Source: a virus (lineage: Duplodnaviria; Heunggongvirae; Uroviricota; Caudoviricetes). Taken from it: a stretch of DNA of 57,127 bases. Made by a program: the position numbers and the translations under genes. The stretch spans positions 1 to 57,127 of IMG/VR virus record IMGVR_UViG_2597489870_000006. The stretch is one strand, 5' to 3'. Position 1 is the first letter of the stretch, and each line of letters starts with the position of its first letter. The notes under the pieces are model-generated. The model had not been told where the DNA came from. It searched no databases and saw only the letters and a program-made list of their open reading frames with translations. Of the stretch, positions 35,302 through 43,024 are shown one piece after another.

Positions 35302-36520
35302 TGGTTTTTCCCTCATCATTTTTTGGGGGCTTAAAATCTCCTGCCGGGTTAGCAGCATTCACGCTTACCAGCATCTCATCCAGCCCTTCAACCGGATTCA
35401 TATCCTCGAATGCGCGGGCTTCATTACGGCTCATCCATCCATCGGTAATAGCGAAGTGATAGAATTGCGCGCGCTCCTGCGGAGTTCCGCGTAAAAGCCC
35501 CGTCAGATTGAACCTGACGTAATACCCGGCGGCTAACTCAGCGCGGGTAAACAAGCGACGGTTAAGCTCCTGCTCCCAGTTCGTCACCCACGGCATCATC
35601 GTGTAGCGGACAAACTGAATCGCCTGCGCAGAAATATTGGAGAAGGTGGCTTTTTCGAGGTCATTAATCATGTGCGCAGGAATATTGAAAATACCGGCAA
35701 TCATTGAACGGTTCAGTTTCATCATGTCAATGATCTGAGCGTCAACTGGCGACACAGTCAGTGCCTTGTAATCCAGATCGGCTGGCAGCAGCATGGTTTT
35801 GTTTTCCTGGCTGCGTAACGCCTGCGATGCCTTCTGCCACTGATCTTTAAGCCAGCCCCAGCTGTCCTTATTGAGTCCGCTTTTAACGGATACTATCCCC
35901 GCCGGACGGGCATTACCGCTGAAGAAGCTTTCTGTGTATTTCTGACCGCTCATCCCCATGCCTATTGTTTCGGCATGTTGCATAATCGGACTCAGCCCCA
36001 TCTTCTGATTATTACCCAGCGCACGGATGTGGATCATATCGTCGGGGCTGATCGCAAACGCCCCATATTCGTTGTACAAACCGTAGGTGTATCGGCCACC
36101 AGTATTCATCAGCGTCGTTTCCCACGGCATACAGCAATCCAGGGATATGACTTCACCGCGACGATTACGTTTCACCCAGGTATACCCATTCCCCCAGCCA
36201 AGGATGTGACGTTGCTTCAGTTCGCGCCATTTGTAACTGGTTTGCCAGGTATTGGGCTCATCATGAACCAGATAAAACGCCGGATGATCGCGTGCGGGCT
36301 CAACCTTCCCATTGTGCCTGCGCATAACATGCAACGGCATCTGGGCAAGGCTGGAAGACAGGACATAGATACAGGAATACACCGCAGCCAGTTTCATCGC
36401 AGTTTCAGGACGGACATAAACGTCTGTCCGGAACAGCCCATCAGTATCAACGGCATCCCCGGTTATCGGGGTGGAAGGATTCTCCAGTGATTTACTTCTG
36501 AACAGAGCATCAAGCAGCAC
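35294..36520 (-). CDS. portal protein (408 aa)
   Basis: Size and position after terminase large subunit. Confidence 0.85.
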   Translation of the reverse strand: MLLDALFRSKSLENPSTPITGDAVDTDGLFRTDVYVRPETAMKLAAVYSCIYVLSSSLAQMPLHVMRRHNGKVEPARDHPAFYLVHDEPNTWQTSYKWRELKQRHILGWGNGYTWVKRNRRGEVISLDCCMPWETTLMNTGGRYTYGLYNEYGAFAISPDDMIHIRALGNNQKMGLSPIMQHAETIGMGMSGQKYTESFFSGNARPAGIVSVKSGLNKDSWGWLKDQWQKASQALRSQENKTMLLPADLDYKALTVSPVDAQIIDMMKLNRSMIAGIFNIPAHMINDLEKATFSNISAQAIQFVRYTMMPWVTNWEQELNRRLFTRAELAAGYYVRFNLTGLLRGTPQERAQFYHFAITDGWMSRNEARAFEDMNPVEGLDEMLVSVNAANPAGDFKPPKNDEGKTNE

Positions 36521-36671
36521 GCGTCCCCCTTCTGGCCATAGCCAGTGCGCCCACCAGCAGTAAACCGCCGGACAGCATCAGAGCCGGAGCCATACCAAAC
36601 TGCAGGTAAAACCCGCACGTAAGCAGGCCAAAACCAGCCAGCCCGATAACATCAGCAATTAGTGATTTCAT
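36513..36671 (-). CDS. small membrane protein (52 aa, below track cutoff)
   Basis: ATG overlapping the terminase stop (ATGA); hydrophobic sequence [26 protein letters not shown]... Confidence 0.4.
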
Positions 36672-39017: not shown

Positions 39018-39368
39018 TCACTTTAGCCGTTCACGGGCCGTCTTCGCCTTATGGCACGGCCAGCACAGGCTCTGCAGATTACTGTCGGCATCTGTGCCGC
39101 CATGCGCTTTAGGGATGATGTGGTCAACAGTTTTCGCCTCACGCACCACACCAGCACGCAGACATAGCTGACACAGGCCTTTGTCACGCTTCAGGACACG
39201 CACGCGGATAACATCCCACTTCGAACCATAACCGCGCTGATGACGGGATTGTCCTGGCTTGTATTGCTTCCAGCCTTCGCTTTTATGGCTTTCGCAGTAG
39301 CCTGACGGGTCCGTGGTTGTAGAGCGGCAGCCGCGAACACGGCAGGCTTTTGGGATTCTAGGGGGCAT
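39018..39368 (-). CDS. HNH endonuclease (116 aa)
   Basis: Cys/His motifs CxxC...HxxxH...CxxCH; typical location upstream of terminase. Confidence 0.8.
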   Translation of the reverse strand: MPPRIPKACRVRGCRSTTTDPSGYCESHKSEGWKQYKPGQSRHQRGYGSKWDVIRVRVLKRDKGLCQLCLRAGVVREAKTVDHIIPKAHGGTDADSNLQSLCWPCHKAKTARERLK

Positions 39369-39418
39369 ATAAAAAATTTATAATAAGTAAAATAATAAAG
39401 AAAAATACTCAAAGGCAA

Positions 39419-39973
39419 TTATCTTGACTCAAATACAAATCTAGAAGAGATGAGCTTATCAAGCATTTTCATAAGTAAATCCTTACTCTCACCACCATTT
39501 ATATATTTATTAAAGTTAGACTCGAACTCATGCCAAACTTTTTCTAACTCAGTATTATCAAATAAGTGCTCTGTCGCAAACCATGAAGACTGGCAACAAT
39601 CGAAAATACTCAAAAGTTCATCAAATCTTTTAACATTCTCTTCTCCCAACTCAATTTGCTGACTAATAAGATCTACATCTTTAAATAGCCATTTCGCAAT
39701 AACTTGCTCTCGTTCATCATTGAGTTGCTCGGGGTCAATATTGACAGGCATAAATAATAGAGCTGTCTTTAATTTCTTTAATGCATTCCTAAAATCTATT
39801 TTTACTTTTGTTTTCTCTTGTTCCCGCCACGTAAACAATGCCTTGAACGCCAAAAACAAAGTAACAATAGTAGCTCCAGCACTCACCCAAGATGCAATCA
39901 TTGCCCAACAAGCCCACTCAGCAGCAGCACGGTTTGCTACAAGTGTCTCATATGCAATATAATTTTCGTTCAT
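39419..39973 (-). CDS. AT-rich moron: single-pass membrane protein (184 aa), function unknown
   Basis: One N-terminal TM helix (AAEWACWAMIASWVSAGATIVTLFLAF); low GC; lies between lysis cassette and packaging genes. Confidence 0.6.
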   Translation of the reverse strand: MNENYIAYETLVANRAAAEWACWAMIASWVSAGATIVTLFLAFKALFTWREQEKTKVKIDFRNALKKLKTALLFMPVNIDPEQLNDEREQVIAKWLFKDVDLISQQIELGEENVKRFDELLSIFDCCQSSWFATEHLFDNTELEKVWHEFESNFNKYINGGESKDLLMKMLDKLISSRFVFESR

Positions 39974-40050
39974 TTTTACCTCACTGTTAATAGTGAGAGT
40001 ATTGTAACTAAAAGCATAATAACTAGAACAGTCAAATAATAATATTTCAC

Positions 40051-40329
40051 CTAATGAATATTATTATTCAAATGCAGATTGTACTTTTGCTCTCCTAACC
40101 TACGAAGATCAGACTTATCACGGTTACATAGCCCCAGTGCTGATAGCAGACTTACATTCAAACTAAGACTATCCCCATAAGTCAGAGGATTGGGTATAAC
40201 TGGCTGTGGAGTTTCAGCGAGCAGGTTCGTCGGTAACGGCATCGTTGGAACCTGCACGTATACTGTCCGCGTACTTCCGCAACCGGTCAGCAGCGACATC
40301 AGGCACAGGGCGTGAAGCACAATCATCAT
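40051..40329 (-). CDS. Rz1-like o-spanin lipoprotein (overlapping Rz, alternate frame)
   Basis: Internal start giving MMIVLHALCLMSLLTGCGS lipobox, embedded in and extending past Rz. Confidence 0.5.
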   Translation of the reverse strand: MMIVLHALCLMSLLTGCGSTRTVYVQVPTMPLPTNLLAETPQPVIPNPLTYGDSLSLNVSLLSALGLCNRDKSDLRRLGEQKYNLHLNNNIH

Positions 40330-40606
40330 CCGCAACAGCCACTTTGATATCTTCCTGGGCTCTCTGTGACTCCAGTGCGATCTGCTGTTTTGCATGCTGG
40401 TTAGCCTCCAGAACTGTATTGACGATTTGTAGTGATTGCAGGACGTTATTGGTAATGGCAGTTGCTGATTCAGCATTTCGTACAGCCTCATCAGCACGTT
40501 TCTTTTCGTACTGATATTTGCTGTAGTAGTGGTTGGCCGACCAGATGAAAGAACCAATGACAGTAACGAAGAAACCAACGATAACCAGCTTATAGCTCAG
40601 CTTCAT
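40214..40606 (-). CDS. Rz-like i-spanin (130 aa)
   Basis: N-terminal TM helix then coiled coil; follows endolysin. Confidence 0.7.
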   Translation of the reverse strand: MKLSYKLVIVGFFVTVIGSFIWSANHYYSKYQYEKKRADEAVRNAESATAITNNVLQSLQIVNTVLEANQHAKQQIALESQRAQEDIKVAVADDDCASRPVPDVAADRLRKYADSIRAGSNDAVTDEPAR

Positions 40607-41692: not shown

Positions 41693-43024
41693 ATGTTAGA
41701 TACACTATCTTTCACTGAACGTGACGAGTTCCAACGCAGAAGCATCGCTGAAAATATCATCAAGTTGCTAAAACCAGAGGCAGACATTTCACCACTGGTA
41801 ATAGACGGCGCATGGGGAACAGGGAAAACAGAATTTAGTATCAAACTGAAAAATCTCATTATTGAGCAAGAAACTGAATCTAAAGTTGTTTATATTGATG
41901 CCTTTAAAGGGGATCATGCAGAATCTCCATTACTTCTCATAACCTCTGCAATTGCCAGCATTTTACCTGAGGAAGAAAAACAACACTTCATTAAGAGATC
42001 TCTTCCTGCAATTCGCTTTGGTTTAAAAACGGTACTAAAAGCTGGTGCAGGTTGGTTTTTACGACAGGAGGCTAGTGAAGTTTCCGAAGAATTCCAAGAT
42101 GCGATGAAGAAAGCAAGCAATGCAGCAATAGATGGGACTATTGAAAATTTGCTTGAAGACCATATGGAATCAGAGAAAAACATAAATTCACTTAAATCTT
42201 GCATCGAAAGCATTTCAGAAAGTCAAAAGATAGTAATTATAATTGATGAATTAGACCGATGTAAGCCGAGTTTTTCAACAAATGTCATTGAAACAATAAA
42301 ACACATTTTTGACATCAATAATGTCTTTTTTATTTTAGTTACAAACACAGAACAATTAAAAGCATCGATAAATCATATTTATGGTTATAGTATTAACTCA
42401 CAAAAGTATCTTGACAAGTTTATAAAATATACCATCACGCTTCCAGACACATGTTTAATAAATGGTCACGTCGTATGTAAAACATCTGTTATATATTGGA
42501 ATTACCTTGTAGACAAGACAAAATCATTAAATGAAATTAATAGTTTATCTGGTAGATTTATCCGTGATTTAATTCAACGAACCAACTTATCCTTACGTGA
42601 AACACAAACTTTTTCACGCAATCTTAACATTTTTCAACTATTAAACGACGATGAGTACAAAAGCAGTGATCCTTTAATAAATAAGATCTTTGTCGTAGCT
42701 GTCTTCATACATTGCTTTGGTGACAAGGAAAAACTAAAACAAGAAATTACCGCAGAATCTATATCTCATTTAGCAGATCTGCTTAACATAAAAGAAATAC
42801 CTTATTCTTATGAGAGAAGATCGCAAATTCCTGAAATATCTATTGTATTCTTCGGAATAATTAAAGACAGTATTACTCTTAATGAGCGATTTGCCCCTAA
42901 AAGTGATGAAGAACTTAAAAAATTCACCAATGTTTATACTGATTATGAACACCTAAATTTTTGGAGTACTACACCCAGAGAGTTATTGATAAAATATATT
43001 AATCAAATGTCATTCATCCAGTAA
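41693..43024 (+). CDS. KAP-family P-loop NTPase (443 aa), AT-rich, opposite strand to flanking phage genes
   Basis: Walker A VIDGAWGTGKTEFS and KAP-type Walker B VIIIDELDRCKP; low GC; convergent with Q. Confidence 0.8.
   Translation: MLDTLSFTERDEFQRRSIAENIIKLLKPEADISPLVIDGAWGTGKTEFSIKLKNLIIEQETESKVVYIDAFKGDHAESPLLLITSAIASILPEEEKQHFIKRSLPAIRFGLKTVLKAGAGWFLRQEASEVSEEFQDAMKKASNAAIDGTIENLLEDHMESEKNINSLKSCIESISESQKIVIIIDELDRCKPSFSTNVIETIKHIFDINNVFFILVTNTEQLKASINHIYGYSINSQKYLDKFIKYTITLPDTCLINGHVVCKTSVIYWNYLVDKTKSLNEINSLSGRFIRDLIQRTNLSLRETQTFSRNLNIFQLLNDDEYKSSDPLINKIFVVAVFIHCFGDKEKLKQEITAESISHLADLLNIKEIPYSYERRSQIPEISIVFFGIIKDSITLNERFAPKSDEELKKFTNVYTDYEHLNFWSTTPRELLIKYINQMSFIQ

Follow-up and report, generated by a model that had tools for sequence, protein, structure and literature searches.

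What is a low-GC gene for a single-pass membrane protein doing between the lysis genes and the packaging genes of a lambdoid prophage? The gene lies at positions 39419 to 39973 of a stretch of 57,127 nucleotides (the window; IMG/VR record IMGVR_UViG_2597489870_000006, positions 1 to 57,127), which is an HK97-like lambdoid prophage. The region is identical to a prophage of enterotoxigenic Escherichia coli (ETEC) H10407 (NC_017633.1, about 312–314 kb). On the minus strand, the genes occur in the order Q antiterminator, holin, endolysin, Rz/Rz1, the gene in question and an HNH endonuclease, followed by a P27-family small terminase, the large terminase, portal, HK97-type protease and capsid. As a single-gene accessory cassette (a "moron") that moves horizontally, the gene occupies the slot after the spanins and before the terminase, and it represents a new family within a known kind, the prophage morons that encode membrane proteins. 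As to its role, we tentatively favor an anti-phage action, with superinfection exclusion and abortive infection taken jointly, although on sequence evidence we would place this somewhat short of probable.

The following features define the gene and the segment that carries it:

39419..39973, minus strand: protein-coding gene, 184 aa, with an ATG start (RefSeq ETEC_RS31260 / WP_001005132.1, "hypothetical protein"; PHROG 6169)
39369..~40100, minus strand: mosaic accessory cassette, about 732 bp, GC 0.327 (from homology breakpoints and GC)
39369..39418, minus strand: AT-rich spacer, GC 0.14, from the stop codon to the HNH ATG (weak A/U pairing only, z = –1.9)

The 184-aa open reading frame (ORF) proposed in an earlier note on this DNA is confirmed at exactly 39419..39973 with its ATG; the strand, which that note did not give, is minus, in the orientation of the late operon. 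A GAGG Shine–Dalgarno (SD) sequence stands at 39979–39982, 5 nt 5′ of the ATG. The ORF has a GC of 0.355 (0.315 at third codon positions, GC3), against 0.570 for HNH, 0.591 and 0.544 for the small and large terminases, and 0.489 for Rz, so the lower GC claimed relative to the flanking genes (0.355 vs. 0.49–0.59) holds, as do the claimed AT-rich spacers on both sides (GC 0.14 downstream at 39369–39418 and 0.26 upstream at 39974–40050). The ORF is a real gene and not a chance reading frame, because a profile search finds 122 relatives, because some positions stay near-invariant at 24%–70% identity, and because the fold is confidently predicted.

The foreign segment is larger than the ORF. In pairwise comparison with three other E. 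coli prophages carrying other cargo, homology stops at 39368–39370 and resumes at 40101–40115, and these breakpoints place the segment between the inside of the 3′ end of Rz1 and the ATG of HNH. The cassette contains the last ~17 codons of Rz1 with their stop, the leader, the ORF and the AT-rich spacer up to the HNH start codon. Among 5426 complete E. coli genomes, the flanks are present in 1301 and the full stretch in only 26; the 732-bp cassette alone occurs in 28 (27 copies at ≥99.3% identity and one distant copy). These counts, together with empty and alternative slots, bear out the suggestion that the junction between lysis and terminase genes is a recurrent accessory slot. The gap between Rz1 and HNH could be measured in 51 of 80 IMG/VR contigs that share the HNH gene; it ranges from 30–70 nt (effectively empty, 10 loci) up to about 1420 nt. 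Among the alternative cargo are a Bor-like lipoprotein, Rha-like proteins, a DUF2441 protein, other low-GC transmembrane (TM) proteins, and a trypsin-like protease with a match to the PADLOC candidate PDC-S45 (E = 4e-22). In phi80, according to its annotation, rha is in the same slot position, as is bor of lambda, downstream from Rz.

Lambdoid morons, for example lambda bor or the HK97 gene 15 moron, are extra genes between conserved late genes. The present gene resembles them as a single gene of deviant GC among conserved late genes, present or absent in close relatives and, in most family members, with a promoter-like element upstream and a terminator downstream. Deviant composition combined with presence/absence polymorphism, by which morons are recognized, is found for the cassette (GC 0.33 vs. 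0.49–0.59). On the other hand, the protein has no relation to Bor, to Lom or to the product of any named moron, and in the window copy there is neither a terminator of its own nor a clear –35, and the ribosome-binding site is structurally sequestered. In most homologues elsewhere, a strong rho-independent terminator stands just past the stop codon (e.g. CCGCCTnnGGGCGGTTTTTT); in 39369–39418 of the window copy there is no G + C-rich terminator stem, so that the moron hallmark of an own terminator is missing here. With no terminator before HNH, transcription of HNH and the terminase must run through the gene in this prophage.

The protein matches PHROG 6169 (function unknown) over its full length (E = 1.3e-74, residues 15–183 vs. 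positions 2–165 of 165). A word-indexed search gave 13 relatives at 59%–70% identity in Citrobacter, Enterobacter, Kluyvera, Klebsiella, Kosakonia and Serratia, and the profile search against 1.84 billion representatives gave the 122 cluster representatives (E ≤ 1e-3), all small and mostly of 130–200 aa. In an alignment of 32 sequences, with 24%–70% identity to the query, A42 and W49 are invariant and A45, Q52, E53, K56, F61, P76, W131, E135, W147 and Y157 near-invariant. Relatives are encoded at 50 IMG/VR loci and at more loci from NCBI and Logan assemblies. At every locus the homologue has a low GC (0.34–0.42) and is co-oriented with the late genes, and mostly it lies between the spanin genes and the terminase, with holins, endolysins, spanins and terminases that are unrelated from phage to phage. 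The backbones are of lambda type, P22 type, HK97 type with HNH, and Terminase_2/3 with Mu-F; at least six unrelated lysis/packaging backbones hold homologues in the same slot. In one relative (L055), the gene lies between a 310-aa ORF in the position of the major tail protein and a 1017-aa ORF in that of the tape measure, both labeled by position only. Such a scatter over unrelated backbones disfavors a role tied to one lysis/packaging system and favors a mobile accessory gene; the homologues are sporadic and are not the core lysis or packaging proteins whose finding the earlier note had named as evidence against its proposal.

This distribution bears on an accessory role in the lytic cycle, in which the protein would be expressed with the late operon and act as a modulator of lysis timing, as an antiholin-like protein or as a shield of the dying cell against re-infection. 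Such a role would suit a gene found inside the late operon and co-oriented with it at every examined locus, almost always right after the spanin genes, and, in the window, without a terminator before HNH and the terminase or a clear –35. We consider it unlikely all the same: the gene is missing from most otherwise near-identical prophages, empty slots exist, and the homologues go with at least six unrelated holin/endolysin/spanin sets and once lie between tail genes, so the protein cannot be specific to one holin.

Two loci depart from the single-gene arrangement. In Enterobacter sp. kpr-6 (L005:2839–3360 and 5001–5555; also L040), the late region of one prophage contains two paralogues with 31% identity, separated by 1.6 kb and each preceded by an SD-sequestering leader. 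In E. coli GF60 (NZ_CP172185.1, L003:2101–3302), the same slot holds a 151-aa relative with the same N-terminal module, adjoined on the opposite strand by a low-GC 189-aa ORF without a family match; the pair may be a two-gene variant.

The protein itself can be divided into four segments, all encoded on the minus strand:

39917..39973, minus strand: acidic amphipathic N-terminal tail, codons 1–19, predicted periplasmic (from alignment, charge and entropy)
39830..39916, minus strand: single TM helix, codons 20–48 (from hydropathy, column statistics and the model)
39749..39829, minus strand: basic juxtamembrane helix, codons 49–75, predicted cytoplasmic (from charge and near-invariant columns)
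39422..39748, minus strand: rest of the four-helix bundle, codons 76–184, predicted cytoplasmic (helices 81–97, 101–138, 142–158 and 164–176)

Only one segment, at about residues 20–48, is hydrophobic enough to span the membrane, and the AlphaFold2 model (built with 32 sequences) is all-helical, with a predicted local distance difference test score (pLDDT) of 90.3 and a predicted template modeling score (pTM) of 0.70, in agreement with the one N-terminal TM helix and helical soluble domain first suggested. A continuous helix 3–73 is followed by the helices of the bundle, and the TM helix is confidently modeled as continuing straight into the four-helix bundle. In the N-terminal tail, I6, Y8, E9, A13 and R15 are conserved. 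In the TM helix, small residues (G/A/S/T) at positions 21, 24, 28, 31, 35, 38, 42, 45 and 48 form a continuous stripe with the 3–4 spacing of a heptad, which makes it probable that the helix self-associates or packs against a partner helix. The juxtamembrane helix carries the signature W49-x2-Q52-E53-x2-K56-x-K58-x2-F61-(K/R)62 and ends with M75-P76; in the bundle, W131, E135, W147, Y157 and a C-terminal RFVF are conserved.

Over the 32 members, the N-terminal tail has on average 0.9 K + R versus 3.0 D + E, and the 20 residues past the TM helix 5.7 K + R versus 2.3 D + E. By the positive-inside rule, this asymmetry predicts an N-out/C-in topology. The membrane module is more conserved than the soluble domain (mean column entropy 1.6–1.9 for tail, TM helix and juxtamembrane helix vs. 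2.4–2.8). In the 32-sequence alignment, the soluble domain has no invariant catalytic set, and its net charge is not conserved (isoelectric points of 4.7–9.7); the two together suggest a non-enzymatic binding domain. Several candidate assignments were rejected. An HEPN-like RNase does not fit, as the Rx4-6H motif is absent and H136 is not invariant, and neither does a DNA binder or DNA mimic, given the unconserved net charge of the soluble domain. For an Rz-like paralogue (i-spanin), the charge bias predicts the topology opposite to the N-in/C-out one, with a periplasmic coiled coil, that such proteins have; moreover, Rz/Rz1 are already present in the prophage and there is no embedded or adjacent lipoprotein ORF.

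The N-terminal module is not restricted to one kind of cytoplasmic domain. A sister family (~177–195 aa) shares with it both the leader and the N-terminal module (MDADLISYESMxAAxxAAxWAFW and the TM helix), but its C-terminal domain is beta-rich with an LPKKLEHGE motif, unlike the four-helix bundle. Its loci (L137–L144, e.g. L143:3386–3973 and L141:4001–4576; proteins P0013, P0098, P0107, P0126 and P0134) use the same two slots, after the spanins and, in L141 and L144, between major tail protein and tape measure; its members gave no match in Pfam and PADLOC scans. The module is also found fused to shorter helical versions.

These features of the protein help to weigh a second explanation, namely that it is a lysogenic-conversion factor outside defense, like Bor or Lom, which alters the envelope physiology of the host, stress tolerance or host interaction. 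The host of the prophage is a pathogen, ETEC H10407, a Bor-like lipoprotein sits in the same slot of other prophages, and the moron anatomy and low GC would suit any cargo expressed in the lysogen. Conversion of this kind is nevertheless somewhat unlikely in our judgment, with the bulk of the protein predicted to be cytoplasmic and not surface-exposed, and with a family that is confined to prophage late regions across many genera and ecologies (river, poultry and soil isolates) and does not track pathotype. In addition, a conserved membrane head with swappable cytoplasmic domains would be more typical of conflict systems.

How the gene would be expressed within a late operon depends on its leader. 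A conserved leader of about 75 nt with two hairpins also precedes the ORFs of divergent relatives; in the window, its part nearest to the start codon has the following elements:

39977..40001, minus strand: leader hairpin HP2, with the 5′ arm at 39992–40001 and the 3′ arm at 39977–39985 holding the SD GAGG
40001..40006, minus strand: –10-like hexamer TACAAT abutting the anti-SD arm, its position kept in relatives

In the window, HP2 has a folding energy of –9.1 kcal/mol (RNAfold, z = –2.7), with a pairing probability of 0.98 for the SD. The arms vary between loci yet stay complementary (CACCTCA/TGAGGTG, CCCCTCA/TGGGGGG, ATCCTCAT/ATGAGGAT; CTCACT/AGTGAG in the window). Among 22 unique family leaders, 82% have the SD paired at P > 0.8, versus 15% of 239 other ORFs at the same loci (Mann–Whitney p = 3e-9 for family against background, a value that overstates independence as the leaders are related). 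Over 12 divergent leaders, 85% of the positions of both hairpins pair, compared with 37%–48% when the partners are slid. Six pairs have double changes, a number reached by 22 of 500 shuffles; this covariation is only moderately supportive because the leader sequences are too similar. No Rfam family was found for the leader.

Of 20 unique leaders, about 15 have the motif TAnAAT where the hexamer stands; its positions 1, 2 and 6 are constant and its position 3 is free to vary. TACAAT may act as a promoter element. A start 7 nt past it (at about 39994) would fall inside the anti-SD arm. If the hexamer is a promoter, RNA started there would lack the arm and would be translatable, while late RNA reading through with the arm would be silenced. 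A consensus scan of the region gave no full –35/–10 pair on the minus strand and no acceptable –35; a second –10-like match in the window leader, a degenerate TATTAT, is at 40016–40021. The arrangement recalls the fold-back inhibition of read-through transcripts in IS10, reportedly described by Davis, Simons and Kleckner in 1985. In both, transcripts from the element's own promoter would begin within or beyond the arm complementary to the ribosome-binding site, and only transcripts initiated outside would sequester the SD; here, the geometry is deduced from the sequence alone. The leader also speaks further against an accessory role in the lytic cycle, since every read-through transcript would hold the SD in a hairpin and most homologues have their own –10 and terminator.

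On the plus strand, the best sigma-70-like match of the region (TTGCTA-18-TATAAT, 10 of 12) is at 39934–39963, antisense within codons 4–13 and pointing into the leader. It could drive an antisense RNA or be there by chance in AT-rich DNA (4 such sites found vs. 3.7 expected). This site enters into a third explanation, a toxin-like selfish element, silenced by RNA structure and possibly by antisense RNA, which would stabilize the cassette or the prophage by post-segregational killing. The tightly sequestered SD, the promoter-like site on the opposite strand and a TM helix likely to oligomerize are what one would expect of such an element. We find it very improbable: 184 aa with a folded, conserved soluble domain are unlike type I toxins, the antisense site is at the frequency expected for AT-rich DNA, and the cassette holds no partner gene. 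Besides, SD-sequestering hairpins are somewhat enriched in unrelated morons as well and are therefore not specific evidence of toxicity.

The distal part of the leader corresponds, in relatives, to an element of wider occurrence. This is a sharply delimited block of 42 nt, (TAA)GGCATTACAGCAGGCATTCACTGAGTGCCTGTGATAATGC, with the distal hairpin HP1 and with a 3′ end that reads like an extended –10, TGnGATAAT; the canonical extended –10 is present in relatives. At least 120 viral contigs contain an exact 27-mer of the block. Of 121 instances, 99 are followed by a co-oriented ORF of at least 40 aa whose start is no more than 110 nt away, and these ORFs form at least 53 unrelated clusters, among them HNH genes, lipoproteins, DUF2513 and both TM families. 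Examples are L032:4925–4966, L054 and L143. The block is also found unannotated in phi80, directly after rha (NC_021190.1, 44298–44337), as well as in mEp390 and in Klebsiella and Pectobacterium phages. It has no Rfam family and no match in the searchable literature.

No canonical 42-nt copy occurs in the window. Two features of the window leader are related to it:

40014..40029, minus strand: GTTCTAGTTATTATGC, apparent remnant of the 3′ arm and extended –10 (GTGCCTGTGATAATGC) (MAFFT alignment)
40035..40068, minus strand: A/T-only palindrome, with 12-nt arms at 40035–40046 and 40057–40068, 100% complementary, and a 10-nt loop

GTTCTAGTTATTATGC aligns with the canonical element of 13 relatives (MAFFT), although it is degenerate and the homology moderate. 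The palindrome was already seen in the earlier note, which was right about its existence; its arms lie slightly to the left of the range of about 40042–40072 given there. It spans the stop codon of Rz1 (40051–40053) and forms a hairpin in the leader fold. Its center, ATTCATTAGGTG (40048–40059), matches the near-invariant loop of the 42-nt element, and the pattern ATTCAYTRRGTG occurs once in the window versus 0.07 times expected. With moderate confidence, the palindrome may thus be read as a decayed copy of the 42-nt element. An intrinsic terminator at this place was rejected, the stem being A/U-only and without a U-tract.

The closest described analogue of the element is PeSL of T4-like phages, a composite terminator/promoter found at the edges of variable ORFs, whose exchange it mediates (PMC2839356, PMC4122927). 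In both cases, a short conserved stem–loop is combined with a promoter at the borders of accessory ORFs. The 42-nt element differs from PeSL in sequence, in phage group (temperate lambdoid phages of enterobacteria) and in promoter type (TGnGATAAT). Both are plausible sites of cargo exchange.

How, then, would the protein act against phages? In the anti-phage action that we favor, the protein would be made in the lysogen from a weak promoter of the gene itself, and read-through late transcripts would be poorly translated, as they carry the anti-SD arm. As a bitopic inner-membrane protein, it would act at the inner membrane on superinfecting phages, and either of two steps could be affected. It could block the entry of the genome (exclusion), or, after its cytoplasmic domain has bound a phage protein, it could make the membrane permeable (abortive infection). 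The conserved membrane module would be the working part, through a block of the conduit or a leak of ions, and the variable, replaceable cytoplasmic domain would confer specificity. This design, with the membrane doing the work and the cytoplasm the recognition, is proposed because the module is conserved, the cytoplasmic domain is variable and no catalytic features are present. The anatomy of a moron, the location in the membrane and the pairing of a constant membrane part with a changeable cytoplasmic one lend the proposal indirect support. Its genomic company also counts in favor of an anti-phage role: the slot elsewhere harbors the candidate defense protease PDC-S45, and the other accessory slot of this prophage holds a KAP NTPase matching PDC-S20 (see below).

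Five points weigh against an anti-phage role. No sequence, profile or fold link connects the protein to a known superinfection exclusion (Sie), abortive infection (Abi) or defense protein. Cargo unrelated to defense, namely Bor-like and Rha-like genes, shares the slot. A subset of family members is without the periplasmic tail. SD-sequestering hairpins are found, at P > 0.8, for 30% of unrelated morons behind the 42-nt element. Finally, the window copy has neither a convincing –35 nor a terminator before HNH, so that it is co-transcribed with the late operon.

The first of these points rests on several searches. With Pfam, NCBIfam and PADLOC, the protein and the 32 members gave only sub-threshold noise (CoV_RPol_N, CTLH, SLATT_1, CARF_TM and T4SS_pilin). 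In PADLOC-DB v2 (a library of 2023), the best match was CARF_TM at E = 0.021, and none of its families matched two or more of the 32 members. A SLATT domain (NCBIfam NF033634) was rejected, with 16.4 bits and E = 0.007 against a cut-off of 41 bits and one hydrophobic segment against two TM helices. Sequence searches of the PDB with the protein and the profile gave nothing below E = 0.006, the matches there being EF-hand or lectin noise; Foldseek against the PDB returned generic helical bundles (E ≥ 0.85), and a structure search of BFVD returned only a fragment of the protein itself. The defense proteins of Gifsy prophages, GiPD474 (a ParA-like ATPase) and HepS (an HEPN protein), are unrelated to the gene product, and the searchable literature holds no mention of this protein.

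Two known systems can be compared with it. SNIPE (PD-lambda-1) is an N-out/C-in single-pass inner-membrane defense protein that acts at the injection site, a single-gene system constitutively present in the inner membrane (PMC13190303). The likeness is one of topology only, and predicted on the side of the present protein: a periplasmic N terminus, one TM helix and a cytoplasmic working domain. The gene product differs in having neither DUF4041, a GIY-YIG nuclease nor a PADLOC match (protein and 32 members), its cytoplasmic part being a small four-helix bundle with no catalytic signature. SieA of P22 is a small inner-membrane prophage protein that blocks DNA delivery; it has three predicted TM helices and a cytoplasmic FxRYPxEAxxFNK motif and is encoded between genes 16 and 9 of P22-like phages (PMC10883804). 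It shares with the gene product a size of about 160–185 aa, the inner-membrane location of a prophage-encoded protein and a patchy distribution. The gene product has one TM helix and no FxRYPxEAxxFNK motif, and lies in another slot and phage type. Both SNIPE and SieA are unrelated to it.

The leader, the module and the 42-nt element could also be parts of one larger arrangement, a modular "head-and-cargo" system of single-protein, membrane-acting anti-phage sensors or effectors with self-immunity at the RNA level. Judged from the sequences, such a system is rather doubtful. In it, the 42-nt hairpin with the extended –10 would insulate the cassette and serve as the recombination point; the SD would be free only on transcripts from the own promoter, and the gene would be silent during late transcription of the prophage. 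The conserved head would be a self-associating module of periplasmic tail plus TM helix, and the interchangeable cytoplasmic domains would be the four-helix bundle, the beta-rich domain and the shorter helical versions.

Should exclusion or abortive infection be true, the gene would represent a new family of single-gene, non-enzymatic membrane defense. The regulatory head, if true, would explain how such a gene can be carried harmlessly inside the late operon of the prophage itself. Without a phage phenotype, the gene would be an ordinary orphan moron, and the element and SD geometry would still be useful for annotating the boundaries of cargo. The gene alone would not greatly surprise a specialist; what is added is a membrane head common to several cargo domains, the SD-sequestering geometry and the widespread 42-nt border element, which gives a sequence handle on dozens of other accessory genes of lambdoid prophages.

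Three other features of the window prophage were noted. In the slot between the Q antiterminator and the holin, a second low-GC accessory gene (41693–43024, plus strand, GC 0.327) lies on the opposite strand and encodes a P-loop NTPase of the KAP family with 443 aa (Pfam PF07693, E = 8e-70). Its match to the PADLOC candidate defense family PDC-S20 is full-length (E = 1e-176), and those to PifA and QatA are weak. In other E. coli prophages, that slot has a metallophosphoesterase, a DUF6731 protein or other genes.

The RefSeq annotation of Rz1/LysC (40051–40242, 63 aa, minus strand) starts after the lipobox. In the same frame, the ORF 40051–40578 has the lipobox LLTGC, with the Cys at codon 100 and Met codons before it at 40327–40329 and 40324–40326, so that the true o-spanin is probably of about 92 aa (40051–40329). 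The last ~17 residues of Rz1 (GC 0.30) come from the imported cassette and differ from those in related prophages. Between the large terminase and the portal gene, a 53-aa ORF (36510–36671, minus strand) shares a few bases with each of them; two of its segments are hydrophobic, and RefSeq lists it as a hypothetical protein.

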